From: Candidatus Wildermuthbacteria bacterium RIFOXYD1_FULL_50_12
GTDB taxonomy: Bacteria > Patescibacteriota > Minisyncoccia > Minisyncoccales > UBA10102
Assembly: GCA_001825035.1 (NCBI GenBank)
Contig: MHUO01000006.1
Coordinates: 19,444-75,467, forward strand
DNA length: 56,024 nucleotides
Direction: 5' to 3'
Positions 6,163 to 21,634 of the stretch are shown piece by piece. The notes under the pieces were generated by a model that made no database searches, was not told the DNA's origin, and saw only the letters and a list, made by a program, of their open reading frames with translations. A program made the position numbers and the translations under genes. Each line of letters begins with the position of its first letter. The first letter of the stretch is position 1.

Positions 6163-6173
6163 TATATTTTTGG

Positions 6174-6275
6174 TTATAGGTAGAAAAGTATCCACCCCGC
6201 CGTAGCCAATCCTACCACGAGCACGATGCCCACGAACTTCCAGTTCGTTTCAGGGTCGTTAAGCGTTAAACGCAT
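6174..6275 (-). CDS. 33-aa single-TM microprotein resembling the N-terminal anchor of the surface-protein family
   Basis: MRLTLNDPETNWKFVGIVLVVGLATAGWILFYL*, compare KTNWKFLAIVIALVVIVGGG of 14967..16640; fills the gap upstream of pgi. Confidence 0.55.
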   Translation of the reverse strand: MRLTLNDPETNWKFVGIVLVVGLATAGWILFYL

Positions 6276-6340: not shown

Positions 6341-7597
6341 TTAGAATCGAATTACACCTTTTTCCATGCCCTCCAGAATGTGCTGTTCAAGCTTTGGATA
6401 GCCGTCCACATACTCGGCGAACAGCCGATTCCACAAGGCCTCGTGCTGGTGGTAGGTAAGGCGCGCCTCCTTGCCTTCTGTCTTATGCGCCACTATCATC
6501 GCATTGTCTTCCAAGTCAAAGCTCACAAGTTGCCTGTTGCCGTTTGGCTTGCCCCTAGCTTGTCGAAGGGGAAAGAATCCAGCTACGGACCAAAAATTGT
6601 CCCAAAATTCAAGGCTGACTTCCTCGTGTTTTTTGCCAAAGGCCACAATATCTTCTTCTGCTTTTCTCCAGTGCATGGCTTCCGGGTTCACGTGCGGCAG
6701 GAACAGCCGCGGATCTTCGGGATTTTCTTTCCATAGATAACGCTGGATAATAAGCCATTTACCCTGAGCGGAGTCGAAGGGTTCGCCCGCTTCGGGCACG
6801 TCGCCGCGCAGGAGAGAGATAAACTTTTGATTAAAATCGGGCAGTTTTGCATATTTTTGGAATAATGTGCTGTAAAAAGCAATCTCGTGAAAATAATGAA
6901 GCAACAAAGCGAAATCCCTCACAAACTTGCCCTTGCCCGACTGCGCAATAGGGTTGAGAAATATAACGCCAAACTCCTTTAAGTGGCTCACGTTGTGGTG
7001 TTTCTTGGCAACGTATTTTTTCGCAACTTCCTCCCATTGCGGTCCCAGCACTTTCAGCTCAATGGGACGGCGCTCAAAATCGTTTGACGTAAACTTAGTA
7101 TAGGCAACCTCAAAGGTCTTATGCATCCACTCGTCGGTTTCCGTGAAGCGCAAAGCGGAAAAAATCTCGGTAATGTCTTCTCTCTTCAGCAATTCGTCTA
7201 TATCTTTATACCCGAGATACCTGAGGATTGCTTCTGGCTCGCGCTCGCGCAAAATCTGCTCGCCGTATTCTTTTTTCAGAAAAAAACCCTCGCTTTCCTT
7301 TGCAATAGTGCGCGCGGCATCCGCCACCTTCTCAAAATCAATGCTGCCGCGATCAATGCCGAGAAACTCGTAGAGTTCTCTGTCGCTTTCTTCCGCTTTT
7401 TTGCCGAGTGCCTCAACTACTTCCTCTGCCGTCGCGCCTCTGCCCAATCCGAGGTCGTCCAGCGCCCGCGCGATCAACTCTTCATTCTGCTGCTCCACCT
7501 TCTCCAAAGCCGGCTCAAACCCCGCTTTCTGCATCGCCCTCTCCAACTCTTCCAAATTCCCTTTCGATATTCCCAAAATCTCCGCAACTTTTTCCAT
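6341..7597 (-). CDS. Hypothetical cytoplasmic protein (418 aa) with His-rich motifs
   Basis: Long ORF co-oriented with the cluster; KHHNVSHLKEFG, LHYFHE, HVNPEAMHW. Confidence 0.75.
   Translation of the reverse strand: MEKVAEILGISKGNLEELERAMQKAGFEPALEKVEQQNEELIARALDDLGLGRGATAEEVVEALGKKAEESDRELYEFLGIDRGSIDFEKVADAARTIAKESEGFFLKKEYGEQILREREPEAILRYLGYKDIDELLKREDITEIFSALRFTETDEWMHKTFEVAYTKFTSNDFERRPIELKVLGPQWEEVAKKYVAKKHHNVSHLKEFGVIFLNPIAQSGKGKFVRDFALLLHYFHEIAFYSTLFQKYAKLPDFNQKFISLLRGDVPEAGEPFDSAQGKWLIIQRYLWKENPEDPRLFLPHVNPEAMHWRKAEEDIVAFGKKHEEVSLEFWDNFWSVAGFFPLRQARGKPNGNRQLVSFDLEDNAMIVAHKTEGKEARLTYHQHEALWNRLFAEYVDGYPKLEQHILEGMEKGVIRF
6552..6571. repeat. REP-like palindrome CCCCTAGCTTGTCGAAGGGG inside CDS
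   Basis: Encodes PLRQARG; similar to the copy at 6762. Confidence 0.55.
6762..6781. repeat. REP-like palindrome CCCTGAGCGGAGTCGAAGGG inside CDS
   Basis: Encodes PFDSAQG; CCCT...AGGG termini. Confidence 0.6.
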
Positions 7598-7610
7598 AGT
7601 CTATATCATC

Positions 7611-8687
7611 TTAATTTACCCTATCCCCCAAAGTACTTTCTAAATATCCCTTGAATACTGCATTTTCTTCTTTTAAATTATTCGAAAAACAAACGTACTC
7701 CAAATATCCATCCCCGCAACCCTCCCAAACCTCGTCCTCCTTGAGTATTGTACAAAATGCGTGAGTTCCGTTTAGGATTGGCCGAGGTGACGGCAAAAAT
7801 GATTTTGCTGCTATAAAGTATTCCTGACCTTCTGGGGAATACAAAATTTTATAACTAGTTCCACCGACACAAGTGCCGCCCGCTCCCCCAGCTGCAAGGA
7901 AAAACTCTTCATGCCCATCGTTATTTACATCCTCAATCTGCTCGAATTCCCCCATCCATTCGACACCGTATCCAAATTCATTAGTATTCGAGAGATGCAA
8001 CCGAAGCTGCGTCTCAATTCTCTCGATATCTACTGTTTGTTTCTCCACAAACCGAAACGTGGAGACGGCTTGGGCATGGGCATTAAAGAAGATGTCTAGC
8101 CGATGATCATCTGAAGTAATAAAATCGTAAAATAATTTCTGATCTTTGCCGTCCAATATCAAAGTTATAACATAGCAATTATTGTCTTTTTCTGTACGAT
8201 ACTCATAACCAAAAGACGGGGGCGTATACGACCATGTTCCTACCTGAAAAGAGATGCCGTCATTTTGTACATTTTCTTGAAACCGATATGTATCTTCCGG
8301 ACTCTCAAAACGTCTGCAAGATCCCTCTTTTGTTGAATATGCGAATAGAAAAATCTGTGCCGCAGTAAGTGGGGTATTGGATAAATATGCTTCTGGAAAT
8401 GTAAGAAAAGTTAGGGAACGACCCAAAGAATCTATACTAGTCTCAAGCAGCAAATCGTTCGGATACATCGCCTCAAACCCATACTCATCATTGTGATAAG
8501 TCTGCCACTCCGAAGTATCAAAATTAGGTTGCTGAATGTTAATACTTTCTGATTGGAGCGCTGGAACTGGCGGCGGCGTTTGCTGTTGTCTCGGCGCTAA
8601 AGCGGACTGCATCTGCCACAGGAAAAGCCCGCCGAAGGCGAAGATGGCCACAACCACTACTATACCAATAACTAACGTTTTGCTCAT
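7611..8687 (-). CDS. Membrane-anchored modular surface protein A (WQTY...STFRF, PsbP-like central domain)
   Basis: N-terminal TM; WQTYHNDEYGFEAMYP...AVSTFRFV; C-domain DVNNDGHEE...GGTCVG. Confidence 0.8.
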   Translation of the reverse strand: MSKTLVIGIVVVVAIFAFGGLFLWQMQSALAPRQQQTPPPVPALQSESINIQQPNFDTSEWQTYHNDEYGFEAMYPNDLLLETSIDSLGRSLTFLTFPEAYLSNTPLTAAQIFLFAYSTKEGSCRRFESPEDTYRFQENVQNDGISFQVGTWSYTPPSFGYEYRTEKDNNCYVITLILDGKDQKLFYDFITSDDHRLDIFFNAHAQAVSTFRFVEKQTVDIERIETQLRLHLSNTNEFGYGVEWMGEFEQIEDVNNDGHEEFFLAAGGAGGTCVGGTSYKILYSPEGQEYFIAAKSFLPSPRPILNGTHAFCTILKEDEVWEGCGDGYLEYVCFSNNLKEENAVFKGYLESTLGDRVN

Positions 8688-8690
8688 GCC

Positions 8691-8948
8691 TTATTTATAA
8701 ATCTTATGCGTGCCAATGTCTAAAAATAAAACTTCCCGGCTGGGAAGAAACATGAATTTTATACGGTAAGAATCGCTGACCCAAAACGCCCAAACGCCTG
8801 CGTCTTTTCCGGAAAGTTTGTGGGTCTTTAGACTCAAGTCGAAAGGGTTGGTTCGGAAAATCGCTTCCTTCTCCTTTGCCCGATCCTTTATTCTCTTGGG
8901 AAGCTTGCGATAGCTTCTCTTGAAGCGTTCCGAAACCTGAATTTCCAT
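8691..8948 (-). CDS. RelE/YafQ-superfamily mRNA interferase toxin
   Basis: 85 aa basic protein, LKTHKLSG...YRI...DIGTHKIY; downstream of a small partner gene. Confidence 0.85.
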   Translation of the reverse strand: MEIQVSERFKRSYRKLPKRIKDRAKEKEAIFRTNPFDLSLKTHKLSGKDAGVWAFWVSDSYRIKFMFLPSREVLFLDIGTHKIYK

Positions 8949-8951
8949 GCC

Positions 8952-9191
8952 TTAATCCAAATCGCTCAGCGACCTTATTCTTGTGGTCTTTCCTGCCTTA
9001 TATTCTCGCATTCCTTCTCGGAACAATTCGTCCACTTCTTCCGCCTCTTTACCGCTCAAATAGTAAGTAGGCACTGCCTGCTCACAGAGCTTTTTATATT
9101 CCTTTAAGCTCAAAACCACAACCCCTCCCCTTTTCTGGATCTCCTCTTTGGGGACCACAACCGCGTCTTTTACATCGAAATTCTTTGCCAT
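8952..9191 (-). CDS. Putative antitoxin
   Basis: 79 aa, ends 3 nt upstream of the toxin; C-terminus EGMREYKAGKTTRIRSLSDL typical of RelE partners. Confidence 0.7.
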   Translation of the reverse strand: MAKNFDVKDAVVVPKEEIQKRGGVVVLSLKEYKKLCEQAVPTYYLSGKEAEEVDELFREGMREYKAGKTTRIRSLSDLD

Positions 9192-9198
9192 AGCTCAA

Positions 9199-10191
9199 TT
9201 ATAGCATAGTTTTCTTTATCTGCAATGTGCCGTATTTTGTGGGAGAATCGGATTTTTTAAGCAAACCTTTGCTGGCGCCCCATTGCGTGAGAACTCCGGT
9301 CGCGTTTGCCGAAGCGAATTGAATGGCGTATTCAATGTCTCCCGGCTTTTTGATGAGCGCCGCGACAAGGCCGGAACCAAAAGCGTCGCCCGCTCCCGTG
9401 CGATCCACCACGCGCTTTAAGGGCAGCACACCCGAGGACCATCTCGTTTTCCCGTCGGAAACTTCCACTCCCTTCGCTCCCCGCGTCATAATCACCAAAC
9501 CCCTCACCCATTTGTCCAATTTTGAAAAAATCTTTTCCCGTTCCTCATACAGTTCTCCCGTTACGTAACTGGCCTCCTCCTGATTGACGATAAACACATC
9601 GATATCATACAAATAGGGCAAAATCCGCTTTTTGTCTTCAAGCTGGGTCTTGCCCGGATTCCACGCGACTTTTATGTTGTTGCGGTCGGCATATCCAATG
9701 ATTTCGGGAACAAGATCTGCCGATTCTCCTCCCAAATGATTAAGATATATCCACTTGGTCTCTGCCAATTTCTTCCATGGAATATCGGACTTGCGCAAAT
9801 GCCATTCGGCGCCCCCGTAAGATAGAATCGTTCTCCCCCTTTTTCCGGTCGTGAGAATAATTGAACAGGCGGTATTGCCTTTCTTGTCAACAATCAAAAA
9901 ATCGCGAGCAATACCCTTTTCTTGAAAATAATCGCGGAGAGAGTGACCTGCAGAATCATCACCCACCACCGTGAGCGCTCCCACTTTCAATCCTTGGTTT
10001 GCAAAAGTGATTGCCGTGTTCACCGCTCCCCCGCCGGTGAAAGATTTGAGATCCTCAATATACAGCTTGGATCCCAAGGACATCGCGAGCGCCTCGCCGG
10101 TCTTAAACACCTTGGTTTTCAGCACTTTGAAATCCCGACTCTGCACAAACACATCTCTCACCGCAGACCCTATTGTGATTACGTCAAACAT
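9199..10191 (-). CDS. PfkB-family carbohydrate kinase
   Basis: GGGAVNTA and DRTGAGDAFGSG signatures. Confidence 0.92.
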   Translation of the reverse strand: MFDVITIGSAVRDVFVQSRDFKVLKTKVFKTGEALAMSLGSKLYIEDLKSFTGGGAVNTAITFANQGLKVGALTVVGDDSAGHSLRDYFQEKGIARDFLIVDKKGNTACSIILTTGKRGRTILSYGGAEWHLRKSDIPWKKLAETKWIYLNHLGGESADLVPEIIGYADRNNIKVAWNPGKTQLEDKKRILPYLYDIDVFIVNQEEASYVTGELYEEREKIFSKLDKWVRGLVIMTRGAKGVEVSDGKTRWSSGVLPLKRVVDRTGAGDAFGSGLVAALIKKPGDIEYAIQFASANATGVLTQWGASKGLLKKSDSPTKYGTLQIKKTML

Positions 10192-10199
10192 ACGTTAAC

Positions 10200-11204
10200 T
10201 CATCTCTTACGGCGCAAGGCCCTTTTTACTGCTTGAATAATATACTTTGCAGTGAGACCAAACGCTTCTAAAAGCTCATCGGGTTTTCCCGACTCGCCGT
10301 AGCGATCTTGGACACCGATCATTTCTACTGGCACGGGGAAATTCTTTGCCAACATTTCAACCACCGCGCTTCCCATGCCACCGGCAACCTGATGTTCCTC
10401 CACGGTTACTACCACTCTGGTTTTGCGCACCGAGGCAAGAATCGTTTTTTGATCCAAGGGTTTTATGGTGTGATTGTTAATCACTTCCGCCGAAATCCCC
10501 TGTTTTTGGAGTTTACTTGCGGCGAGTAATGCCTCGTAGAGCAAGGGGCCGCTTGCAATAATTGTTACACCTGCCTGCGCAGGCAGGTCTTTCCCTTGCC
10601 AGAATATCTCTGCTTTTCCGAATTTGAACGGCGTTTTTTCTGTGGTGATTACTGGCGTGGCTTCTCTGGCAAGACGAATGTACACGGGCCATTCAATCTC
10701 TGCCGCGGCGGCGGTTGCTTTCTTTGCTTCAATCGCGTCGCAAGGATATATCACTCGCATATTCGGCATTACGCGCATTAAAGCAATGTCTTCCAACGCC
10801 TGATGAGTGGCGCCATCCGGGCCCACAGAAATTCCGGCGTGAGCTCCTCCGATTTTCACATTGACGTCGTTCAGGGCAATAGTCGTTCGAATCTGCTCAT
10901 TGTTGCGCCCCGGGGAAAATGTTGCGTAAGAAGAAATAAACGGGACTTTTCCAGCCAAAGCCATGCCGGCAGCCAAAGACGCCATATTCTGTTCTGCCAC
11001 GCCAACCTCAACGAATCTTTCCGGAAATTTCTTCTGGAAGTATTCTGACCTCGTTGACTCTGACAAATCCGCGCACAGCACCACCACATTAGGATTCTTT
11101 TCTCCCGCAATAACCAAACCTTCCCCATAACCGTTTCTTGTCGGGGTTTTTTTAACGTCTTTTGCAAAAACCTCTGGCGCCAAATATGCTTTGGGGTTGA
11201 CCAT
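10200..11204 (-). CDS. Transketolase, C-terminal (pyrimidine-binding) subunit
   Basis: GVAEQN, GPDGATHQALED, VTVEEH; start MVNPKAY immediately after the N-subunit stop. Confidence 0.92.
   Translation of the reverse strand: MVNPKAYLAPEVFAKDVKKTPTRNGYGEGLVIAGEKNPNVVVLCADLSESTRSEYFQKKFPERFVEVGVAEQNMASLAAGMALAGKVPFISSYATFSPGRNNEQIRTTIALNDVNVKIGGAHAGISVGPDGATHQALEDIALMRVMPNMRVIYPCDAIEAKKATAAAAEIEWPVYIRLAREATPVITTEKTPFKFGKAEIFWQGKDLPAQAGVTIIASGPLLYEALLAASKLQKQGISAEVINNHTIKPLDQKTILASVRKTRVVVTVEEHQVAGGMGSAVVEMLAKNFPVPVEMIGVQDRYGESGKPDELLEAFGLTAKYIIQAVKRALRRKR
10569..10588. repeat. Perfect 20-bp palindrome ACCTGCCTGCGCAGGCAGGT inserted in-frame in transketolase
   Basis: Gives GKD-LPAQAG-VTIIA where homologues usually read GKDVTIIA. 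Confidence 0.75.
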
Positions 11205-11206
11205 AT

Positions 11207-12067
11207 TTATTCTCGTATCCCTGTGATCTTTACGCCTATCGCCCTTAATTCGCGAAGGGCGGTTTTTGCTTCTTCGGGTTTTGGCGGCTTTCCATGCCAT
11301 TCAAATTTGTTCTCCATAAAACTCACTCCCTTGCCTGGAATGGTATGCGCGATAATGCAAGTCGGCTTTTCCTGGGTCGCCTTTGCCTGCGAGCAGGCGT
11401 CAATGATTTCTTCAATGTTATGCCCGTCAATTTCTATCACATTCCAGTTGAATGCTTCGTACTTTGCTCGCAAGGGTTCCAAAGGCATTATATCCTCCAC
11501 ATACCCATCAATCTGAATATTATTGCGGTCAATGATTCCCGTGAGATTGTTGAGCTTGTTTTTCCCCGCGAACATCGCGGCTTCCCACGTCTGCCCCGCT
11601 TCCTGCTCTCCGTCTGACATCGCGCAAAACACTCTCCAATTTTTCTTATCAATATACTTTGCCACATACGCCATGCCTGCGGCCTGCGACAAACCAGAGC
11701 CCAAGGGCCCGGATGTAGTTTCAACTCCGGGCAATTTTTTTCTTTCCGGGTGTCCTTGCAATCGAGACCCAAATTTTCTCAAGGTTTTTAACTCCTCAAG
11801 CGGAAAGTAACCAGCCCTTGCCATCGCAGCATATCGGACAGGACAAATGTGCCCATTCGACAAAATCAGGCGATCCCGCTCCTCCCAATCAGGGTTTTTC
11901 GGGTCGTGGTTCATTACCGCGAAATACAGCGCAGTAAATACATCTGCCATGCCCAAAGGCCCAGCTGAATGCCCAGACCCTGCCTCTAAGAGCATCCTTA
12001 TGATATCCTGCCGTATCTCATTTGCGATTTTGTCTAACTCCTGTAGCGAATACTGCTTTTTTGCCAT
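11207..12067 (-). CDS. Transketolase, N-terminal (TPP-binding) subunit
   Basis: SGHSAG, LQGHP, SDGE...N TPP motif, HTIPGKG; start MAKKQ. Confidence 0.93.
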   Translation of the reverse strand: MAKKQYSLQELDKIANEIRQDIIRMLLEAGSGHSAGPLGMADVFTALYFAVMNHDPKNPDWEERDRLILSNGHICPVRYAAMARAGYFPLEELKTLRKFGSRLQGHPERKKLPGVETTSGPLGSGLSQAAGMAYVAKYIDKKNWRVFCAMSDGEQEAGQTWEAAMFAGKNKLNNLTGIIDRNNIQIDGYVEDIMPLEPLRAKYEAFNWNVIEIDGHNIEEIIDACSQAKATQEKPTCIIAHTIPGKGVSFMENKFEWHGKPPKPEEAKTALRELRAIGVKITGIRE

Positions 12068-12155
12068 AAATGGAATAAGTTCTCCTATTATACCAAATCT
12101 CCCCATTTTGGGGGAGGTTAGATATTAACAGATATTCGTCTCTTAGATTGACTTT

Positions 12156-13304
12156 CTATCCTGGACCCCACACATTTTCACCCTCAAATTTCTTATCCCC
12201 TAAGTAATTTCTGAATATTTCATATCTTGGTTCTTCCAAGTTTGGAGAAAAGACAGGTGGTTGGTCAATCAGCATACCACATTCTTGGGGTGATTTTGGT
12301 ACAGACCAATTTGTTCTGAAAAATCTCTCATCGTATTTCTGGCTGTATATGTAAAATTCTATTCTGCATCCGGTGCACGTTCCCCCACACCCAGATGAAG
12401 CCCAGTATACTTCGTCTATTCCATCCTTATCGATATCTATAATTTTGGGTTTCTCGTAAATATGACCAGAAAATCCGTCATTCCACACCTGATGTTTCTC
12501 TTTATCCAAAATATAAACGGTATGGCTTTCTCCGGGGTATTTTTGATCACATACCACCAGCGTCCCCTTGCCCTGCGCATCAACAAGCTGTATTGGAGCG
12601 GTCCAAGCTAAGCTATACTGAGGGTTCTCTCGGCAGACGGAATCGAATGTACTCACAAACCGAAATGTGGAGAGGATCTGGCGGAATAGTTTCCTTGAGG
12701 ATTCTGTGCTTTCAGAAAGAGTCACAAACATTGCTACCGTACCGTCTTTAATGTCGGCTTCAGCTATCGCCTTTTGGCCTTTTCCCCAATCGATAATAAA
12801 ATTAATTTCGTCTCCTTCTAAAATCTCACATCTTTCATTCTCGCGATAGGCGCCGCAGAAAGACACGCCCAGGACTGCGCGGTTTGCAAACGTAAGCGTC
12901 ATAAACGGCTCTCCTTTCTCATCGTTAACTGTAGTACGATCCTCAAATTCAATCGTGTCCCACTTATCAGGATAATCAAATTCAAACCCAAACTCCTCAT
13001 TGCGGTAGGTTTGCCAGGTTGCTGTTTCGTTTGTTCGAGATTCTTTTGGCACGCATATACCTCTTGCGCCAGGAAGAGGATCAATTTTTACGCATTCAGA
13101 ATTATCTGAACATTGCATATCTTCGATGCCTCCGCATTCTATTGCATCAGTAGGTTCTATCTTTTTGTTCGCTTGTTGTAATTCTTCTCTGGGTGCATTC
13201 GCAATTTTCAACAGCAAAATCCCGCCAATCGTGACGGTACCGGCGACAAGCATCACGATAAGAAGCAGTTTGATTTCGGGTTTAAAGTCTTGGAATGGAT
13301 TCAT
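12156..13304 (-). CDS. Modular surface protein B
   Basis: TM anchor; CGGIEDMQC...GICV Cys module; WQTYRNEEFGFE...QILSTFRFV; C-domain DIDKDGIDE...GGTCTG. Confidence 0.8.
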   Translation of the reverse strand: MNPFQDFKPEIKLLLIVMLVAGTVTIGGILLLKIANAPREELQQANKKIEPTDAIECGGIEDMQCSDNSECVKIDPLPGARGICVPKESRTNETATWQTYRNEEFGFEFDYPDKWDTIEFEDRTTVNDEKGEPFMTLTFANRAVLGVSFCGAYRENERCEILEGDEINFIIDWGKGQKAIAEADIKDGTVAMFVTLSESTESSRKLFRQILSTFRFVSTFDSVCRENPQYSLAWTAPIQLVDAQGKGTLVVCDQKYPGESHTVYILDKEKHQVWNDGFSGHIYEKPKIIDIDKDGIDEVYWASSGCGGTCTGCRIEFYIYSQKYDERFFRTNWSVPKSPQECGMLIDQPPVFSPNLEEPRYEIFRNYLGDKKFEGENVWGPG

Positions 13305-14407
13305 ATTCTAGGGTTTTGCACTTCTTTCGCACAAACAAAATCCGTAGTCGTACGAGGATCGGTCGTCGAACTGGGAGTTTTTTCACCCCTGGTCACATTA
13401 TCGTACTTTCCAACGCAACTATAACAGATGATTGGATCAGGAGACGAACAAACCTTATACGAGCATGGCACATTACTACCACATCCTAGAACTTCCCAAT
13501 TCCATTGAGCTTGAGAAGTTAGTTCCACAAACCGAAACGTGGAGAGGATTTGGTTAAAGATTTCTCTTGAGACAGTAATTCTAGAAAAACGAAAGTATAC
13601 ATCCGACCGACAGAATTCAAGTTCATCTTTTTCGCTGTTTCGTTCAAAAAATAACTTTACATCATCGCCACTAAGATTCGTGTAGTTAGAGCAATCAAAA
13701 TATCCGTCAGGAGCAACGTACATGTTCATTTCGCCCTCCTCTCTAGTTAGGTCGACCCCTTCGGAGCCAAAAGCAAAAATCTGGGGATTAGCGCCAGCGC
13801 GAAATTCTGTTTGTCCCGGCCCTAATCTACCCGGGAAACTACTTTCAATCTTCCAATCTTCCGGATACCTCACCTCAAACCCAAACTCCTCGTTGCGGTA
13901 GGTTTGCCAGGTGGAAATATCAATTTCAAGGGCCTGTTGTTTGCAGGACTGGACAAATAGAGATCCGTATTCTGGATCGTTTCGACTAGGCATTGAATCG
14001 CAAAGATCAGGACGTTTGAGCTTTTTGGCAAGCTCTCGCAAGCATCCATCTTTAGGACTTACACCGCTCGGAAAATGTTCTTCCGATAGGGTAAGGCAGT
14101 AGTCGACATCGCTTTTCGCAACCGCATAATCTATTTTGCAGTATTCGCGGGCTTGGTTAGGTCTCACCCCAAAATCCTGAATGGTATGGTCTTTGTTGAT
14201 TTTATTACAGAGTTCTGGATTATTTGTTTCGATAGCTCTTGCAAATGCTTTTTCGTATGTCCATTCTTCTTGGAATGGGATAAGTGGCTCTCCTGGATGC
14301 ACTTCTTGTCTATATATAACCCATCCCAAAACAAGGATAAGAAGCGAGATTCCTCCGAGTACCGCAACTTTCCAATTTATCTTTACAAAAGGATTGAATA
14401 AAAGCAT
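13301..14407 (-). CDS. Modular surface protein C
   Basis: TM anchor; Cys-spaced helical repeats; WQTYRNEEFGFEVRYP...QILSTFRFV; Cys-rich tail. Confidence 0.8.
   Translation of the reverse strand: MLLFNPFVKINWKVAVLGGISLLILVLGWVIYRQEVHPGEPLIPFQEEWTYEKAFARAIETNNPELCNKINKDHTIQDFGVRPNQAREYCKIDYAVAKSDVDYCLTLSEEHFPSGVSPKDGCLRELAKKLKRPDLCDSMPSRNDPEYGSLFVQSCKQQALEIDISTWQTYRNEEFGFEVRYPEDWKIESSFPGRLGPGQTEFRAGANPQIFAFGSEGVDLTREEGEMNMYVAPDGYFDCSNYTNLSGDDVKLFFERNSEKDELEFCRSDVYFRFSRITVSREIFNQILSTFRFVELTSQAQWNWEVLGCGSNVPCSYKVCSSPDPIICYSCVGKYDNVTRGEKTPSSTTDPRTTTDFVCAKEVQNPRI
13524..13545. repeat. Right conserved box TCCACAAACCGAAACGTGGAGA; 22/22 identical to 8044..8065
   Basis: Further copies at about 12654-12684 and 15759-15792, orphan at 14921-14947, degenerate at about 17331-17360. 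Confidence 0.9.
13847..13921. repeat. Left conserved box of the surface-gene family; 69/75 nt identical to 17691..17765
   Basis: Manual alignment; further copies at about 8461-8507, 12970-13019 and 16120-16161. Confidence 0.9.
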
Positions 14408-14410
14408 GCC

Positions 14411-14662
14411 TTAGAACTTTTTATACGTTTTCTCTGAACGACGCTCGATTGCTAAAATAAAAATATCCGCATCGGTCTTGCGATAGATAATGCGGATGTC
14501 GCCTTTGCGGACACGAAAAATATCATCTCGTTCTTTTAGTCTCTTTATATCCAAACCCTCAAATTGCTCTTGTGTAATTTTCCTTAAAATCGCTCGCGTT
14601 GCCTTGCGTTCTTTTGGCGTGAGTTTCCGCAACGCCTTTTCAGTCTTGTCCATAAAAATCAA
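14411..14662 (-). CDS. RelE/ParE-family toxin
   Basis: IKRLK...IFRVRKGDIRIIY...ERRSEKTY; overlaps the antitoxin stop. Confidence 0.85.
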   Translation of the reverse strand: MIFMDKTEKALRKLTPKERKATRAILRKITQEQFEGLDIKRLKERDDIFRVRKGDIRIIYRKTDADIFILAIERRSEKTYKKF

Positions 14663-14871
14663 AGGCGAGAGAGCAGTTCCTTTATCGGCACCCCGCCCTT
14701 CCGGATCTTGGTGAAATCAACTACTTCTTCCCATTCTCCTCCCTCGACAGGAGAAATACGAAAAAGCGGTTTGGAGCGCCGCATCACAACCAAACTTTCC
14801 CCCCGTTTCACCCGGGCTGTATATTTCTCAATGTTCTGCCGCAATTCTTTTAAACCAATAATATGTTCCAT
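14659..14871 (-). CDS. Phd/YefM-family antitoxin
   Basis: IIGLKELRQN...VKRGESLVVMRRSKPLF; start moved to ATG 14871. Confidence 0.85.
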   Translation of the reverse strand: MEHIIGLKELRQNIEKYTARVKRGESLVVMRRSKPLFRISPVEGGEWEEVVDFTKIRKGGVPIKELLSRL

Positions 14872-14878
14872 ATACTTT

Positions 14879-14907
14879 AAGTTTACCTTAAGATAAACTT
14901 TAGTCAA
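14879..14907 (-). promoter_or_regulatory. TA promoter (TTGACT-N16-TAAACT) overlapping palindromic operator AAGTTTA-C-CTTAAG-A-TAAACTT
   Basis: Palindrome 14879-14900 directly upstream of the antitoxin ATG; type II TA operons typically autorepress. Confidence 0.65.
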
Positions 14908-14917
14908 TCCCCCCCCC

Positions 14918-14950
14918 TTATTCTGTAAACCGAAATGCGGAGAGAATGAC
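14918..14950 (-). pseudogene. Orphan right-box remnant encoding VILSAFRFTE*
   Basis: Intergenic copy of the ILSTFRF box ending in TAA, not part of any ORF. Confidence 0.6.
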
Positions 14951-14966
14951 GAGCAAGATGTATGTA

Positions 14967-16640
14967 CTACAGATTAAAGAATGGGGAATCGCGCAAAAAT
15001 TCTATCTCTTGCGGCAGCAATCCAACTCCCGGGTAATTCCCGTGCCATTGCATAATGCTTTGGTCAGCATATTGCTCTCCGGGATGGGGAAGCCCGAATG
15101 CATGGCCGAGTTCATGGGCAGGGGTTCCCTTCGGGACTCCTCCGCCGCACTGCCATCCTGAACTATACACACAGGGAATACCCCACTCATTAGGAACGCC
15201 GGAAATCGGTTCCAACACCCAATCGCTCACCACCGCCCATCCGCAACTGTTTCCGTCTGAATTCGCGCCCGCGTATCCTCCGCCTCCTGCGCCAAAAACC
15301 AGATACGCCGTATCTGCCGCCCAGCAAGGTCCCCCCGCGTAATACGCCGCCGCTCCACCATAAATAGCTTCATTCATGTACTGGGCCCAGTTGCCTTCAA
15401 ACAGAGAAAGATTGTTTATGCATTCCTGACGGGGATTCTCTCCGCAACGCATTTCAAGATAATTCCGAAATGGATGACGTATTACCTCAAGCGGAACCAT
15501 CTGAAAGGTAGCGCCTACCTGGTCAAAATACCACTGCCGAAGTTCCGCAAGGTATCCTTGCACCGCGGTTTCATACAAGGGAATCATTGCTTTGTCCGCC
15601 GGATACACCAAGTATGGCTTCACGATAAAAACCATCGGCTCCTCGATTTGAGTAACAACCGGCTCCCGTTCCTCTTCTTGGGAGTTCTGCTTTTTGACAT
15701 TATTTGTCTCCTGCGAAAGAGTTTGGACTTCTGTTTGCCTATCTTGCATCCCCTCTGATTCTATAAACCGAAAAGTGGAAAGGATTTGGCGGAAAAATGA
15801 TTTCACATCCCGGCTTGGCGAATGTAAAATATCAATTACAACCATCCCGCCTTCTGATTTCAGAATTTCGGCTCTCGATCTAGTGAGAGCGCCTTCCGTT
15901 TCAATATCCCAGTCAATGAGAAATTCTACATTATCAAAGGTGAATCTCTCGCAACGAGAATCGTTTGGATACGCTTCGCAATAACTTATTCCTCTTGCAT
16001 CGAGCGTACTTTGTGAAATATATCCAAACTGTAAAAAATAACTCTCCCCTGTCAGCTTGCCCAAAAAAGAAGTATACGCTTCTCCCGTATTCTTTTGCAA
16101 AACCAGAACAGATGGAAATTTCACCTCAAAGCCGAAGTCCTCGTTGCGGTAGGTCTGCCAGTTTATAGTTTCGGCTGTTTTTAATTCAACTTCTGAAATA
16201 GTCCAGATTTTTCCTTCACCAGGAATTGGCTGGATTAAAGTCACGACATACGTTTTATCCTCATGCTTTACGTCAGTAGAAAATTCATTTATGCTTTTGC
16301 CGAATTCTGCTTGGATGGAGGTATCGGGAGTATCTAAAGTTTCAAGGTCTTTTTCAGGATCAAATCCATACTGCGCGATTTCAGCTCTTAAAACCATAAT
16401 CGGATTTAATCTCCATGGCTGATGACCTTCGTCTACCGAAGATTGAATTCCGCTTATCAAGTTATAGTTTATTTCCACCTGGCCTATTTTAATCTCATTT
16501 TTTGCTTCGTTTTGAATATCTAATTTAGGTAGATTTGCACTTTCATCTTGCAAGGACAGTAAAACCCCTCCTCCGACGATAACAACTAGAGCAATTACAA
16601 TTGCAAGAAATTTCCAGTTTGTTTTGGCGGAGAGATCCAT
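14967..16640 (-). CDS. Modular surface protein D with C-terminal metzincin Zn-peptidase domain
   Basis: TM anchor; VDEGHQPWRLNP module; WQTYRNEDFGFE...QILSTFRFI; HELGHAFGLPH and SIM Met-turn. Confidence 0.85.
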   Translation of the reverse strand: MDLSAKTNWKFLAIVIALVVIVGGGVLLSLQDESANLPKLDIQNEAKNEIKIGQVEINYNLISGIQSSVDEGHQPWRLNPIMVLRAEIAQYGFDPEKDLETLDTPDTSIQAEFGKSINEFSTDVKHEDKTYVVTLIQPIPGEGKIWTISEVELKTAETINWQTYRNEDFGFEVKFPSVLVLQKNTGEAYTSFLGKLTGESYFLQFGYISQSTLDARGISYCEAYPNDSRCERFTFDNVEFLIDWDIETEGALTRSRAEILKSEGGMVVIDILHSPSRDVKSFFRQILSTFRFIESEGMQDRQTEVQTLSQETNNVKKQNSQEEEREPVVTQIEEPMVFIVKPYLVYPADKAMIPLYETAVQGYLAELRQWYFDQVGATFQMVPLEVIRHPFRNYLEMRCGENPRQECINNLSLFEGNWAQYMNEAIYGGAAAYYAGGPCWAADTAYLVFGAGGGGYAGANSDGNSCGWAVVSDWVLEPISGVPNEWGIPCVYSSGWQCGGGVPKGTPAHELGHAFGLPHPGEQYADQSIMQWHGNYPGVGLLPQEIEFLRDSPFFNL

Positions 16641-16652
16641 AGCGTCTTCTAG

Positions 16653-18365
16653 TTACTGAACATTTAATACGCCTGGCTCTTTCTGTAAAATTTCATCAAT
16701 ACTTTCTGAAAGATATTTATTTTGAGTAACTCCCGCCGGAATCTTTACGTATTCCTCTCCATTCCAATCATAGAGATAGAACTGTAACCTACGCGCACAG
16801 CCGCAACAATAATCTGAAGGATTTTCTGACCAGCGACTATCTACCGTGATAATTCTAGTGGCCGAGCCATTTTCTCCGGCAAATTTAAATGGCCAACCCT
16901 GACAGCCTGAAGCAATCATCAAGGGCCCTTCTATTATCGAAAATCTATCGACTTGCCAAACAAGAAGATATAGCTGTTCCGTATAACCTGAGCCCATGGC
17001 ATAAGATATGCCGGTTATAGCAATTGCGTTTCTTCCGTCGCCCCAAAAATCAGATACGAATCTAGCGGAATCAACTTCATTCCGACCAGCAAAAGTGTAG
17101 CCAAACTCTTCTTGGAGGCAATCTTCGGTACCAGAAAAAACTTTTAGCATAATTGGCTTGGATCTTTCTCCAACGCTACTAATTTCTCTGTAGATTCCAA
17201 CGATTTCACTTGTTTGGTCTTTATTCAGATCGATTTCGAATTCCAGATTGTAAGCTTGCTCATTCCCTCCCCAATCGTTTTTGGCAAGTTCGTAGCCAAA
17301 GAAATCTGTCGGTGAACAAACTCCGATCTTATCTATAAATTGGAATGAGGAAATGATCCGTTCAAAAATTTGGTCAAAAGAAGCAGCTTTTGGATCATTT
17401 TCCCAATATGCACCAAAAACTTTTACAAAGCCACCTGTGGGATAGCTAAATCTCTTTGTGGTGTAGACAATATTAATATTGTTCGCAAGCTGAATGGTTG
17501 TTTTCCCCTCAAAACTCTTAGGCTCTGATGCTCGAGCAAAAGTAACCCATGCATTACCTTTTGGAGGAATTCCGCCAACGCTGGTACCTGGAATCGAGCC
17601 AATAATTCCTGGAATATACTCAGATTTATCAACAGTGGCGATCTCTGTGACAGGAGTATCTTTCCCAAAAGCGAAATCATAATCACGAGTAATCTTCCAA
17701 TCTTTCGGATACCTCACCTCAAACCCGTACTCCTCATTGCGGTAGGTTTGCCAGGTGGAGGTATCGATAGAGATCTTCTCAGTGTTTTGATTCGCAATTG
17801 CAATACCGCCTTCCACGAAATTGATCTCAACTTTCAGTTTCTCTCCTTCCTTTATTGAAATGGGAACGCATCCAAAGAAACGAACCGGAGCTTCGCCAGC
17901 CTGCTGCTGCGTGGCATTTGTGAGACAGAGCATAAACTCTCCTTCTTCCGAAATGATCGAGAACCTTCCAGATGAATTTAAAGAAGAAGACGCAATAATA
18001 TATTGGGAGGCGACTTCTTCTGAAATACCTCCCTGGAGATACCCAACGCTCTCCTCCGGAGTCGGTAGCTCAAATTCCTGAAGAAAAGACGCGAGGCGAT
18101 TTGCTGGGAATGTCACAAGAGCGCCTTGTGTTTGCGGAAAGTCGGGAATCGTCGCAATGTCGTTTTTATAGGTTACGTTGCCTTCGACAATACCTTGGCC
18201 GGGCAAAACAGCGGACGTAGGAGCGGGTGTTAGAGCGACTGGAGGAGTTTGAGCGACTGGTTCTGGCTGCATGGTCTTCAACAACAAGACCCCGGCAACG
18301 AGGATAACGGCAACGAGTGCCACGATGAAGAATAATTTGATTTCGAATTTGAAGTCGTGAAACAT
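16653..18365 (-). CDS. Modular surface protein E
   Basis: Start MFHDFKFEIKL just after the rpe stop; WQTYRNEEYGFEVRYP...IISSFQFI; DLNKDQ Ca-loop-like C-domain with CCGC. Confidence 0.8.
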   Translation of the reverse strand: MFHDFKFEIKLFFIVALVAVILVAGVLLLKTMQPEPVAQTPPVALTPAPTSAVLPGQGIVEGNVTYKNDIATIPDFPQTQGALVTFPANRLASFLQEFELPTPEESVGYLQGGISEEVASQYIIASSSLNSSGRFSIISEEGEFMLCLTNATQQQAGEAPVRFFGCVPISIKEGEKLKVEINFVEGGIAIANQNTEKISIDTSTWQTYRNEEYGFEVRYPKDWKITRDYDFAFGKDTPVTEIATVDKSEYIPGIIGSIPGTSVGGIPPKGNAWVTFARASEPKSFEGKTTIQLANNINIVYTTKRFSYPTGGFVKVFGAYWENDPKAASFDQIFERIISSFQFIDKIGVCSPTDFFGYELAKNDWGGNEQAYNLEFEIDLNKDQTSEIVGIYREISSVGERSKPIMLKVFSGTEDCLQEEFGYTFAGRNEVDSARFVSDFWGDGRNAIAITGISYAMGSGYTEQLYLLVWQVDRFSIIEGPLMIASGCQGWPFKFAGENGSATRIITVDSRWSENPSDYCCGCARRLQFYLYDWNGEEYVKIPAGVTQNKYLSESIDEILQKEPGVLNVQ

Positions 18366-18367
18366 GA

Positions 18368-19000
18368 TTATGAAATCATCTCTTCTAGATGCTTGAGGGC
18401 GGCCACGGGATCTGAAGTTTTCATCACGGCGCTGCCGGCACACGCGTAATCAACGCCGGCACCAAACGCTTGTTTCACTGTCTGTTCATTGATCCCCCCA
18501 TCGATACCTATCAAAACATCTTGTTTGAGTCGCCGAATTTCAGAAACTTTTGAAAGGACGTCTGGAATAAATTCCTGCTGCTGAAATCCAGGATTCACGC
18601 CCATCACGAGCAACGCATCGAGCTTTTCAATGTAGGACGCAAGTTTTAAAGCCGGGGTTGGCGGATTCACGGCAATTTCTTTTTGAAAACCGTACTCTTC
18701 CATTTTTTGGAGAACGACTTCGGGGCTATCGACTGCCTCCGCATGAAAGATGACGCGCTTGGCTCCGATGCCGCTGCAATCCTCCAAATATTTTTCGGGA
18801 TGCTCCACCATCAGGTGGATTTCCAGATGAAAAAATTGGGCAGCTTCCCCCAATTCAAATAAGTTCGCTGAGGTATTGGGCACGAATTTCCCGTCCATAA
18901 TATCAATGTGCAGCCATTTTGTGTGCCCCTTGAGAATCTCCATGTTTTCGCGAAGCTCTTCGGGATTTGCGGTCAGGATGGCAGGAATAATCCTCTGCAT
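18368..19000 (-). CDS. rpe: Ribulose-phosphate 3-epimerase
   Basis: HIDIMDGKFVPN, EIHLMV, MGVNPGF, IDGGIN. Confidence 0.95.
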   Translation of the reverse strand: MQRIIPAILTANPEELRENMEILKGHTKWLHIDIMDGKFVPNTSANLFELGEAAQFFHLEIHLMVEHPEKYLEDCSGIGAKRVIFHAEAVDSPEVVLQKMEEYGFQKEIAVNPPTPALKLASYIEKLDALLVMGVNPGFQQQEFIPDVLSKVSEIRRLKQDVLIGIDGGINEQTVKQAFGAGVDYACAGSAVMKTSDPVAALKHLEEMIS

Positions 19001-19001
19001 A

Positions 19002-19457
19002 TCAAGCTTGTTCTTCCATATCTTTTATTTTCTTAAGCCGCCGCTCGTGACGGCCTCCGTCAAAGGACGTACGAAGCCATAGATCAACGGCCCTCAGAGC
19101 TAACTCCTTGCTGAGAAAACGCGCGCCGAGAGAAAGCAGATTGGAATCGTTATGCCGTCGCGAAAGCTCTATGATCTCAAGAGATCCTCCGTAATAGTGG
19201 GCGGCGTACACCCCTTTCACCTTGTTTGCGACAATTGCCTCTCCTTGCCCAGAACCCCCCAATACGATGCCGCGATTGCGTTCCGGGTCTTCCGCTACTT
19301 TTCGGGCTGCGGGAATCACGAAATCCGGATAGTCGTCGTCTGGCTCATACGCAAAAGATCCTATATCTTCTATCTCAAAATCTCGCTCTTTCAAATATGC
19401 CTTAATCTGTTCTTTTAGCTCAAATCCGGCATGATCAGATGCAAGATAAATTTTCAT
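19002..19457 (-). CDS. rpiB: Ribose-5-phosphate isomerase B (RpiB/LacA/LacB)
   Basis: ASDHAGF, DDYPD, GGSGQGE, HNDSN, GGRHERR. Confidence 0.95.
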   Translation of the reverse strand: MKIYLASDHAGFELKEQIKAYLKERDFEIEDIGSFAYEPDDDYPDFVIPAARKVAEDPERNRGIVLGGSGQGEAIVANKVKGVYAAHYYGGSLEIIELSRRHNDSNLLSLGARFLSKELALRAVDLWLRTSFDGGRHERRLKKIKDMEEQA

Positions 19458-19762: not shown

Positions 19763-21634
19763 CTATCGAGAAAAGCGCAAAAACCTGTATATCCCAAATC
19801 CAAAAATAAGCGCAGCGGCAAAGAGGAGAAGCATATTGCTTCGGATAAAACCGAGGGTATTAGCTCCTGCCTGCGCAGGCAGGCCTGCCGCGACTTCCGC
19901 CCGAAGCGCTTGCGACCTGGTCTCTTCAACACCGACAACAAGCGAAGCAGCGAACTCGGTTTGCCCGCCTGCGCGGGCAGGCTCATTTTCGCCCTGCTCT
20001 TCCGTTTCTTGCGCAAGCGCTTCCTGAATTTGTCCGCCTGCGCGGGCGAGCTCGTCTTGCGCTTGCTGTGCGGCAAGCGAAGCAAGCTGGCGCTCAATTT
20101 CTCTCGCTTCTTCCTCAACGCGCAAAAGTTCCGCTTGAATCTCCCGCAGAAGCTCTTGGCGAGACGCCCCCTCTCTCTGCCCTTCCGTGAAAATCTCTTC
20201 TTCCCCAACCATCTGCGGAGACGAACTCACGTTGCTCATGTTACTTCCGACTGTGCTCTCCGTCTGCTCCTGCGCCGACTCTTGGTCCTGAAAAACTGAA
20301 ATTGAATAAACCGGAAAACTCTTACCGCTCAAGGCAATCACCGCGTCTGGGGTGGCGCCTTTGTTGTTCCACTCGGAAGTCCCGGGCGCTACCCACCAGA
20401 ACCCGCCGTCCTCGTCCTGCAGTGAAAGAAGGTGCTCAATCGGATTTTCTGGGCTCTTTGTCCAAGCTGTCGGATCCTCCCCAAGCTTATGAATCGCCAT
20501 GATAACCCATGCATCGCTATTGCCATCCGAGTCCGTACCGAATGGGCTTTGAGGGTCGTAGGGAAACCCGCCGTCCAGATTCTGCGCTTCTTTCAAATAC
20601 TGCCTTGCCAGCTGTATAGCGTTGTCGGTTTCCGTCATACCGGTCTCCAGCAAAGCCATAATGGCGGCTGCCGTGTCGTTTGTGTCGCTCGTGCCTCCCG
20701 CGTCCCATGCCCAGCCGCCATCCGCATTCTGATCCTGCAAAAGGAACGCTTTTGAATTTTGGATAACAGGATCGCTTGCGGGCACTCCAGCGGACCGCAA
20801 CGCGAGAATCCCCCAGATATCGTCGTTCAAAAGCGAGGGGTCGCCGAGCTGCGTATCGTCAGTAAAACTCTTCAGTTTCTCCACAAAATCCTCTTCAGGA
20901 AAGGTTCGCGGATCCTGGCCAGTTGCCGTTATCGCGAGTATCGGCTTTGCGTAGGAAATGGCGCTGTCGCCAAAAAACGTCTTGAGAAAAGAGATGTCTG
21001 CGCTTTGTCCCACAGCTATGAACGCCATTACAATATCTGGCGAGAGTTCCTGATTCTGAAGAAACGCTACTGCTTTTACGAGAACCACATTTATATCAAC
21101 AACCGGCGCAGGATCACTCCCTCCCGAGCCGCCGCTGCCGTTTCCCCCACTCCCACCGGCTTCCTCGCTGTCTTCATCCTCGTTTGCATCGTCGCTCTCA
21201 TCATCCTGAATGCCCTCTCCCTCCTCTTCGGACTCTCCCACTCCCTCTTCCTCTTGATTCTCCTGCTCTTCCTCCTCCAACTCCTCCTGTCCTTCTTCTA
21301 CTACCTCTTCCTCATCCTCTTCCAAAAGCTCAACATTGACCCACGCGCATCCCTGTTCTTTAATGTCTTGCAATCGCTTCTGGCCGATGCCAGATACGCT
21401 AATCAAGTCATCGACCGACCCAAAGGGTCTTCCTTCAATAATCCTCTCAGCGATAGTCGGACCCACTCCCGGCAATAGTTTGAGATCTTCCTTGCTCGCT
21501 GTGTTGATTTCAATAGAGTTCGGCTCGCAGACCGACTCTTCCGCGTATGCCCCGCCGCTGGAAAGTAAAAGCACAAAGATTGCGGTACAGGTACATACGA
21601 AAAAGCGTTTGCGCAAATTAGTTTGCTTTTTCAT
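19763..21634 (-). CDS. Surface protein: ComEA-type HhH domain, acidic linker, prenyltransferase/squalene-oxidase-repeat (alpha/alpha) domain, C-terminal TM
   Basis: EINTAS..L..LPGVGP..A.RII..RPF.SVDDL..V.GIG; QNADGGW, QNLDGGF and QDEDGGF repeats; DTNDTAAAIMAL; GGAG SD before MKKQTN. Confidence 0.8.
   Translation of the reverse strand: MKKQTNLRKRFFVCTCTAIFVLLLSSGGAYAEESVCEPNSIEINTASKEDLKLLPGVGPTIAERIIEGRPFGSVDDLISVSGIGQKRLQDIKEQGCAWVNVELLEEDEEEVVEEGQEELEEEEQENQEEEGVGESEEEGEGIQDDESDDANEDEDSEEAGGSGGNGSGGSGGSDPAPVVDINVVLVKAVAFLQNQELSPDIVMAFIAVGQSADISFLKTFFGDSAISYAKPILAITATGQDPRTFPEEDFVEKLKSFTDDTQLGDPSLLNDDIWGILALRSAGVPASDPVIQNSKAFLLQDQNADGGWAWDAGGTSDTNDTAAAIMALLETGMTETDNAIQLARQYLKEAQNLDGGFPYDPQSPFGTDSDGNSDAWVIMAIHKLGEDPTAWTKSPENPIEHLLSLQDEDGGFWWVAPGTSEWNNKGATPDAVIALSGKSFPVYSISVFQDQESAQEQTESTVGSNMSNVSSSPQMVGEEEIFTEGQREGASRQELLREIQAELLRVEEEAREIERQLASLAAQQAQDELARAGGQIQEALAQETEEQGENEPARAGGQTEFAASLVVGVEETRSQALRAEVAAGLPAQAGANTLGFIRSNMLLLFAAALIFGFGIYRFLRFSR

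Follow-up and report, generated by a model that had tools for sequence, protein, structure and literature searches.

Five genes in the window analysed here, a stretch of 56,024 nucleotides (nt) from the genome of the tiny groundwater bacterium Candidatus Wildermuthbacteria bacterium RIFOXYD1_FULL_50_12, lie among genes of the pentose phosphate pathway and carry the same two short conserved DNA sequences, which we term the left box and the right box. The genome comprises 677 kb in 9 contigs, is 98.8% complete, and is designated G000 in the set of relatives used for comparison. The boxes are the two ends of one diverged domain of the PsbP fold (Pfam PsbP_2-like). We favor, at a probability of about 0.65, the reading that the five genes, A to E, are a lineage-specific cluster of one very large family of the Patescibacteria (Candidate Phyla Radiation, CPR), and that members of this family have exchanged parts over evolutionary time by RecA-type recombination or gene conversion at the edges of the domain. 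An initial annotation of the window had read the same boxes as parts of a candidate system for shuffling surface proteins at this locus.

The evidence for exchange comes from the family at large. An all-versus-all blastn comparison of 133 open reading frames (ORFs) of the family gave 5137 high-scoring segment pairs (HSPs), 4000 of which are confined to the left box. Among the 68 HSPs of at least 100 nt and at least 70% identity, 30 end at positions +30 to +59 relative to the left-box start; in 15, the beginning falls between -30 and +29 of the start of the right box. Two of the four genes in an array of relative G008 have in common a 289-nt repeat, 96% identical, that begins 2 bases ahead of the start codon and extends to where the left box ends. 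In windows along this pair, DNA identity is 100% at -210 to -1, 87% in the box, about 50% in the core and 83-89% in the right box; at the protein level, identity is 99% in the N-terminus, 18% in the core and 90% in the right box. Similar steps in identity were found in L103 (90% over 310 nt), L064 (where a second tract begins at the right box), L125, L059, L077 and G030. A DNA-identical N-terminus beside a dissimilar core cannot come from point mutation, and recombination is therefore required. Chimeric paralogues of this kind, in which a near-identical segment is followed by an unrelated one and the junction lies at a conserved sequence, are present in the relatives and were not seen among A to E. 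Across 4560 gene pairs, N-terminal similarity and core similarity are uncorrelated (Spearman -0.006), a measure that stands in here for phylogenies of the modules, the cores being too diverged to align. Twelve pairs have N-terminal similarity above 0.5; core similarity is above 0.5 in none of these and below 0.2 in 11. In the syntenic relatives L067 and L088, flanks are 71-81% identical in nt, and the stretch between the boxes is the sole one that does not align. By these comparisons, the N-terminal, core and C-terminal modules have independent histories across the family.

The family is large and widely distributed. Its profile matches 37,023 cluster representatives at E<=1e-3 and 14,285 at 1e-10. 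Of 41 related genomes, with G000 counted among them, 20 have members, frequently as arrays (23 matches in G007 and 13 in G023), and members were also found in 79 loci across many named groups of Patescibacteria. The relatives carry Patescibacteria (CPR) names, and one relative in the same family is a Wildermuthbacteria record. Many of the proteins contain 2-6 tandem domains, and in some of these a right box is followed, two residues on, by a left box. The left-box peptide is near-invariant, with 41 distinct copies in 12 genomes from different genera, and the roughly 100 residues between the boxes are hypervariable. The Pfam model PsbP_2 (PF18933) gave scores of 19.5 bits for B, 16.8 for C and 20.7 for E, under its cut-off of 27 bits and over the left box only, and did not match A or D. 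Of 106 family cores from relatives, 57 match PsbP_2 (E<=0.01; best E 3e-10) and 10 match PsbP. By these scores, the family is related to PsbP_2, and its copies A to E are too diverged for the Pfam model.

An AlphaFold2 model of the core of gene C, made with the 106 sequences, has a PsbP fold, with moderate confidence (pLDDT 73, pTM 0.70). In the model, the first beta-hairpin (strands 9-13 and 18-22) comes from the left box; the right box supplies the last part of the final helix (122-131) together with a short closing strand. A Foldseek search of PDB placed CyanoP (2lnj) at the top (E 8e-4, TM 0.51), with PsbP structures 1v2b, 2vu4 and 2xb3 also found; the top matches have probability 1.0 and TM 0.44-0.51. 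The core is thereby predicted to have a PsbP/Mog1-type fold, the same by model comparison as that of the extracytoplasmic PsbP, PsbP_2 and Mog1-fold domains (CyanoP, PsbP, Tsi3, and MTC28/Apa of mycobacteria). As in those proteins, the domain would be held on the outer side of the membrane by an N-terminal anchor. Unlike them, it has no photosystem context, has a hypervariable interior and termini conserved at the DNA level, and frequently occurs as tandem domains or in gene arrays.

Within the window, A to E have in common a left box (WQTYRNEEFGFE) and a right box, which encodes ILSTFRF and has diverged in E. A repeat search returned the left box as a family of 5 copies of 78 nt, and the right box as a family of 4 copies of 30 nt plus an orphan copy; codon alignments bore out the counts given for both boxes in the initial annotation. 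Around the left box, 7 of 78 positions are different between genes C and E (91% identity; 68/78 when they are compared beside foreign genes), and the right boxes of A and C are identical over 22 consecutive bases. All copies are on the minus strand. The left boxes lie at 8460-8507 in A (WQTYHNDEYGFEAMYP; found by repeat search, DNA pattern and codon alignment), at 12969-13016 in B, 16113-16160 in D and 17706-17753 in E (each by repeat search and DNA pattern), and at 13862-13909 in C, where the sequence equals the DNA consensus of the family. Repeat search and DNA pattern also located the right boxes of B (12657-12677), C (13529-13549) and D (15765-15785). The right box of A, which reads AVSTFRF, lies at 8049-8069 and matches the DNA pattern with 3 mismatches; the diverged one of E (IISSFQF) was placed at 17337-17357 by codon alignment. 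In a search of the whole genome, a check that the initial annotation had called for, the left-box pattern occurred in A to E only. The right-box pattern occurred without mismatch in B, C, D and the orphan copy, and with 3 mismatches in A and two other places. A domain profile search likewise matched only A to E, with no sixth copy in the genome.

The orphan right box (14912-14947, minus strand) reads ILSAFRFTE and then a stop. It lies out of frame, 16 codons past the stop of gene D, matches the DNA pattern with zero mismatches and is 81% like the right box of D itself, so that the 260-amino-acid (aa) C-terminal extension of D is bracketed by two right boxes. The orphan copy looks like the scar of a rearrangement at a box. 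Orphan pieces and two interspersed toxin-antitoxin modules had both been noted from the sequence; the analysis located this copy and gene pairs at 8691-9191 and 14411-14907.

Genes A to E are complete, co-directional ORFs on the minus strand, each with a start codon and an anchor. Each has one strongly hydrophobic N-terminal stretch of 19 residues (Kyte-Doolittle 2.5-3.3) and no second one (next best at most 1.22), in agreement with the description of five anchored genes at these positions. The products are putative surface proteins, for which the adhesin or receptor role proposed in the initial annotation would be one possibility. Gene A (7611-8687; family-profile match E 5.8e-40) has its hydrophobic stretch at residue 5, a PsbP-like core and a cysteine-rich C-domain distantly like that of B. 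Gene B (12156-13304) has an anchor of the family type, FQDFKPEIKL, a PsbP-like core of the type found in B and D, and a C-domain. Gene C (13301-14407) is composed of an anchor, a cysteine-rich N-region, a PsbP-like core and a cysteine-rich tail of 74 aa. Gene D (14967-16640) has an anchor, an N-region, a PsbP-like core and the 260-aa extension. Gene E (16653-18365, with ATG at 18365 the probable start in an ORF open to 18443) has the family-type anchor FHDFKFEIKL, an N-region of 200 aa, a PsbP-like core and a C-region of 220 aa. A Pfam scan found no toxin family among A to E. The C-extension of D (14967-15750) contains the motif HELGHAFGLPH at 15084-15116 on the minus strand, which fits the zincin/metzincin pattern HExxHxxGxxH, and matches Pfam Peptidase_M66 at E 0.0029, under the cut-off; gene D is possibly a fusion of a PsbP-like domain to a candidate metallopeptidase.

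The resemblances among the modules of A to E are real and mostly weak. The genes had been described as largely unalike between the boxes, a description that does not stand: the cores of A to D align end to end, from box to box, at 23-33% identity, and are therefore one diverged domain. The common middle reported for B and D was recovered (33% identity over 163 aa, E 4e-20), as was, more weakly, the common C-domain of A and B (35% over 43 aa, E 2e-4); the C-domains of B and E match at E 0.014. The likeness of the C-domains of A, B and E appears, from alignments of this strength, to be old and distant. The anchor reported as common to B and E is present in both, as the motif F.DFK.EIKL, and is a feature of the whole family, not a case of local sharing.

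The conservation of the boxes extends to synonymous sites. In the left boxes within G000, 74 of 112 codon pairs at identical residues are themselves identical (0.66), where genomic codon usage predicts 0.41, and comparison of the G000 left boxes with those of other genera gives the same level (1271/1994, 0.64). Over the family, codon identity at identical residues is 0.63 between genomes and 0.68 within them for the left box, and 0.64 and 0.70 for the right box. The corresponding values are 0.42 and 0.38 in the middle of the core and 0.41 and 0.51 in the N-terminal part, with an expectation from codon usage of 0.36-0.43. Transketolase orthologues from 24 of the same genomes served as a control and gave 0.42 overall, 0.417 at 87 invariant columns and 0.51 in the best stretch of 16 codons. 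In the boxes, single codons are preferred far beyond local usage (GGG 0.66 versus 0.19, CTC 0.66 versus 0.15, TCC 0.78 versus 0.15, ATC 0.71 versus 0.24). The invariant Gly, Leu, Ser and Ile sites of transketolase show no preference for the box codons (GGG 0.34, CTC 0.13, TCC 0.30). The 0.41 expectation and the transketolase controls rule out codon usage, or a general preference at conserved sites, as the cause. Apart from the left patch of C and E, the boxes of A to E resemble those in genes of other genera at least as closely as they resemble one another. Local gene conversion is not a sufficient cause of box identity, since the values between genera (0.63-0.64) are about those within genomes (0.68-0.70). 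The conservation of box DNA is thus real and lineage-wide. The initial annotation was right that box identity exceeds amino-acid constraint; that identity carries no mark of local exchange, for conservation as strong between genera as within the genome is no evidence of exchange within the A to E locus. Selection on DNA or RNA, or homogenisation by gene flow across lineages, is left as a candidate cause, and the position-specific conservation of codons is a directly testable signal.

Parts of the five genes have different nearest relatives. With a gene of L111, gene C has 71% identity in its 74-aa tail and 25% in the core, and the DNA likeness of the tails (78.7% over 235 nt) begins at the right box. 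The core of D is closest to a transketolase-linked gene of L088 (54% aa, 67% nt identity), which has another anchor and no C-extension. For the anchor region of E, the nearest sequence is in a G021 gene (77% DNA identity across 147 nt). Whole genes also come and go. Gene A is absent from L138, where the toxin-antitoxin pair directly adjoins the 418-aa ORF that follows A in the window. In metagenome run X17, one low-depth contig (depth 3) lacks precisely gene A (7601-8691) and has 16 different bases there instead. From these two cases, gene A is taken to be a whole-gene presence/absence polymorphism.

Several observations weigh against exchange as the source of the present locus. Neither the repeat search nor blastn found a DNA tract common to any two of A to E beyond the boxes; because no longer tract is common, exchange at the locus is old or never occurred. 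Box codons that are equally alike between genera and within genomes form a pattern that local gene conversion leaves unaccounted for. The stretch is contained in 20 metagenome runs from 11 studies, none of them listed as RNA (16 rows are marked as possible sources), and in the four runs whose contigs were compared these are identical to and colinear with the window. In the family, core similarity above 0.5 was found for a single pair, between genomes, and common cores within a genome were not seen, whereas plain unequal crossing-over would give common cores as often as common N-termini. The pattern in L067 and L088 could, in addition, stem from extreme diversifying selection on the core or be strengthened by it. 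The independent assortment of modules proposed for the window holds family-wide, in uncorrelated N-termini and cores and in tracts that end at boxes; among A to E no recent tract was seen. In the same way, recombination or gene conversion at the boxes stands for the family, in which the boxes are the junctions of mosaic genes, and not as recent exchange among the five.

The alternative junctions that the initial annotation had expected in metagenome data did not appear: the contigs of the four runs, which cannot reveal rare variants, hold no supported alternative junction at a box. The sole joint from box to box (15788 to 12981) occurs in one contig with a shorter side of 31 letters and 85% likeness, and is probably a gene of another organism. 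Together with two further weak single joints, 7822 to 14387 and 11033 to 13890 (sides of 22-37 letters), it was read as coming from other organisms or repeats. Many foreign metagenome contigs match the left box of E only, with loose ends at 17706 and 17753.

General homologous recombination, or gene conversion, is in our view the likeliest mechanism. Family members would swap parts by these ordinary routes, with no dedicated enzyme; no stretches other than the two boxes and the conserved anchor motif would be similar enough to act as homology arms. The outcome would be an anchor and linker, a core and a C-terminal extension with separate histories, and tracts of identity that stop at the boxes. 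Exchange would act over evolutionary time and not as a switch. RecA is present (427.5 bits, contig C1), so the RecA-type exchange that had been proposed is feasible. As noted from the sequence, no recombinase, reverse transcriptase or integrase is encoded in the window. The genome has no match to the reverse transcriptase family RVT_1, and its one tyrosine and two to three serine recombinases all lie on other contigs, profiles for both classes giving no match on the contig of the window. A scan of 150 of 166 ORFs beside family arrays, at 19 loci (the other 16 ORFs belong to 3 of the 22 loci), found no integrase, transposase, recombinase or reverse transcriptase. The boxes might serve more widely as portable homology arms, at the DNA level, of a pool that spans the lineage. 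CPR cells would take up foreign DNA, RecA would swap anchors, PsbP-like cores and tails among paralogues and distant lineages, and overwriting, or selection for exchangeability, would keep the box codons the same across genera. We regard this extension as possible and hold it tentatively; if true, it would mean recombination-based surface diversity in CPR bacteria without a retroelement.

These results leave little room for a programmed system, in which a trans-acting site-specific recombinase or a similar enzyme joins the genes at the boxes to give combinatorial surface variants in the population. Such a system might be suspected from box DNA conserved beyond the needs of the protein, from the imperfect complementarity of the left and right boxes in consensus, and from the serine and tyrosine recombinases elsewhere in the genome. 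We consider it very unlikely, given the lack of any such enzyme on the contig or among the 150 of 166 ORFs scanned beside arrays at 19 loci, the reference order kept in all four runs, and the state of A to E, all of them full-length genes with no silent cassettes. A working shuffling system at the locus likewise finds no support in common tracts, in junctions or in an array-linked enzyme. The antisense frame is open from box to box in none of 99 family genes, so inversion cannot yield a protein, and an inversion shufflon was rejected. Targeted hypermutation, or a diversity-generating retroelement acting on the core, would account for a hypervariable stretch so sharply bounded, and such retroelements are said to be common in CPR bacteria. 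It is nonetheless the least probable cause: the 98.8% complete genome gave no match to RVT_1, no template-like repeat of any core occurs in 7000-19000, and the cores of paralogues with identical N-termini are 18-21% identical in aa, far past what adenine-specific mutagenesis produces.

Two further explanations were considered. Plain old paralogy would derive A to E from ancient duplication, insertion and domain accretion, with the boxes held by protein constraint and some selection on DNA or RNA, and with no exchange at boxes ever in this genome. It fits the lack of common tracts in the window, the end-to-end alignment of the cores at 23-33%, the C-domains of A, B and E that are distantly alike at most, the stability of the locus in the four runs, and the absence of the whole block from L138 and of exactly gene A from the X17 contig, signs that whole genes are gained or lost. 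We judge it unlikely all the same, since the orphan right box that follows D records a past rearrangement at a box, the tail of C, the core of D and the anchor of E have different nearest relatives, and the family at large clearly recombines at the boxes. A cause at the RNA level would have the left and right boxes pair in the mRNA and loop out the variable core, or the left box form a local CAAACC/GGTTTG hairpin, with an effect on translation, folding or stability. The consensus sequences (ACCG.AACG.GGAG...GGGTTTG against CAAATCC.CTCC.CGTT.CGGT) do allow pairing, with a duplex of -31.4 kcal/mol in gene C. Duplexes formed by the real codons are more stable than those of synonymous recodings (mean z -1.76; 19 of 34 below -1.64), and several strongly biased wobble bases are the complementary ones. 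The copies follow one consensus, though, and amount to nearly a single observation. At 8 wobble-containing pairs the bases covary no more than independence predicts, the outer helix is disrupted without compensation in the ILSTFKF form (20 of 62), and gene D makes no pairing. In folds of the whole stretch from box to box, 55 genes have 9.8 left-right pairs against 6.8 in recoded versions, which is not a significant difference (Wilcoxon p 0.13). On balance such a cause seems decidedly improbable. Over the genes of the window, complementarity of the boxes is strong in B and C, weak in E and absent in D, and the left box carries its own CAAACC/GGTTTG complement.

In its working, the family that we read as exchanging parts at domain edges would be closest to adhesin paralogues whose middle regions are swapped through RecA-dependent gene conversion; its resemblance to cassette variation and to polymorphic-toxin loci with a demarcating motif is looser. 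Outer-membrane adhesin paralogues of Helicobacter pylori of the babA/babB/sabA type exchange their middle regions by RecA-dependent gene conversion. Like the genes of the present family, these are full-length paralogues (expressed, in the case of bab and sab) with conserved ends and a variable middle, and chimeras form without a dedicated enzyme. Here, in contrast, the arms are about 45 and 25 nt long and lie at domain edges, the family spans many phylum-level lineages with box codons equally alike between genera, and ongoing exchange was not seen at the A to E locus. The exchangeable modules, moreover, lie on both sides of the variable core, as anchor and linker and as tail, which sets the family apart from the known systems generally. 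In cassette antigenic variation (Neisseria pilE/pilS, Borrelia vlsE, Anaplasma msp2), conserved DNA similarly frames variable segments and guides gene conversion. The present locus differs in having no single expression site with silent promoterless cassettes and only one orphan of 36 nt; in the contigs of four runs, which drop rare variants, no heterogeneity of the population was seen. Polymorphic toxin loci (Rhs, CdiA) resemble it in a short conserved motif at the junction of a variable module and in a downstream orphan fragment (here 14912-14947). Unlike those loci, it has no toxin domain and no cognate immunity gene, the variable part is internal and framed on both sides, and the interspersed toxin-antitoxin pairs are ordinary type II modules (ParE/Phd and YafQ-like). 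Shufflons and other invertible DNA (Rci-type) likewise have short repeated DNA sites within the coding sequence of surface proteins, but here there is no adjacent recombinase, the boxes are in direct order between genes, and no antisense frame is open.

CPR bacteria, or Patescibacteria, are thought to live attached to other cells, with surface proteins probably deciding their partners. If the boxes are recombination junctions, they would provide a simple handle to catalogue cassette repertoires in metagenomes and a way to test the surface diversification of ultra-small symbionts. A full-text literature search, with supplementary files outside its reach, found no description of the mosaic structure of this family. 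A paper on hypervariation in CPR bacteria (PMC6851277) concerns a tripeptide-repeat gene, a different phenomenon.

Every gene between 500 and 24,000 of the window is on the minus strand. The order is RpiB, Rpe, E, D, a Phd/ParE pair, C, B, the N and C halves of transketolase, a PfkB kinase, a small ORF with a YafQ/RelE-like gene, A, the 418-aa ORF and PGI. RpiB (19002-19457; Pfam E 1.2e-43), at the upstream end of the cluster, and Rpe (18368-19000; E 6.8e-50) precede the family genes. Gene B is directly upstream of the N half of transketolase, tktN (11207-12106; E 1.6e-62), and this is followed by the C half (10200-11300; E 2.7e-43), the PfkB kinase (9199-10191; E 3e-38) and, on the far side of A, PGI (5191-6195). 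RpiB-Rpe, the split transketolase, PfkB and PGI thus flank A to E and confirm the placement of the genes in a pentose phosphate cluster, although as an old conserved neighbourhood and not as an intrusion. Because the intergenic gaps in the cluster are 0-60 nt, co-transcription of A to E with the pentose phosphate genes is plausible. A scan for promoter-like sites was uninformative (24, against 19.6 +/- 4.6 in shuffled sequences), and of 29 terminator-like sites (15.2 +/- 2.9 in shuffles) none clearly divides the genes.

The synteny of rpe and tkt in relatives, to which the initial annotation had pointed as a check, supports this view of the neighbourhood. Among 27 relatives with a tktN match, six, each from a related genus (G019, G021, G009, G001, G014 and G007), have a gene of the family as the one directly upstream of tktN, and family genes occur inside the rpe/tkt clusters of L062, L089, L088 and L066. 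Three of them separate Rpe from TktN in L062; at the rpe/tkt junction of G007 there are two, along with a MazE/PIN pair. In L138, the nearest relative among metagenome contigs (Rpe 76% identical), Rpe is directly followed by the transketolase N half, with no family gene in 20 kb. By these gene orders, a family gene beside rpe/tkt is an old arrangement in this bacterial family. G000 seems to have expanded it to four genes and a toxin-antitoxin pair, with the fifth gene, A, further downstream, and gene number at the site varies by gain and loss of whole genes. In two other lineages, L089 (4004-4447) and L088 (3089-3510), a family gene lies between the two halves of transketolase.

The Phd/ParE pair of the window consists of a ParE-like toxin (14411-14662, minus strand; Pfam ParE_toxin E 5e-5) and a Phd/YefM-like antitoxin (14659-14907, minus; PhdYeFM E 4.7e-5). 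The pair at 8691-9191 consists of a YafQ/RelE-like toxin (8691-8948, minus; YafQ_toxin E 0.0012, under the cut-off) and, upstream, a small ORF as its partner (8952-9191, minus). Both members of the latter have counterparts, 58-68% identical, at the same place in L138. Modules of toxin-antitoxin type are interleaved with family arrays in 9 of 19 loci scanned (L014, L017, L023, L024, L025, L076, L083, L100 and L111), in addition to the two pairs of the window, and include AbiEii, Fic, HepT/HEPN with MNT, ParE, YafQ, PIN/MazE, HicAB and DUF433/DUF5615. The array sites look like hot spots of gain and loss.

A few other features of the window and genome were recorded. The 418-aa ORF (6341-7597, minus strand) matches no Pfam family and is 74% identical to an ORF at the same position in L138. 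The ORFs of the two transketolase halves (10200-11300 and 11207-12106) overlap by 94 nt, and the start codon of the C half is probably located later than its longest ORF implies. A second match similar to the transketolase N half (44-46% identity) occurs at G000:C4:172155-172964 and at G021:C2:54706-55515, with one TGA and one TAA inside the span in both genomes. Finally, a 627-aa protein (19763-21646, minus strand) is predicted to contain a ComEA-like helix-hairpin-helix, a long acidic low-complexity stretch and an alpha-toroid domain like those of squalene cyclases and prenyltransferases, with a hydrophobic segment at either end. A DUF4430 protein follows it, and it has counterparts of 60-63% identity in L138 and L139.

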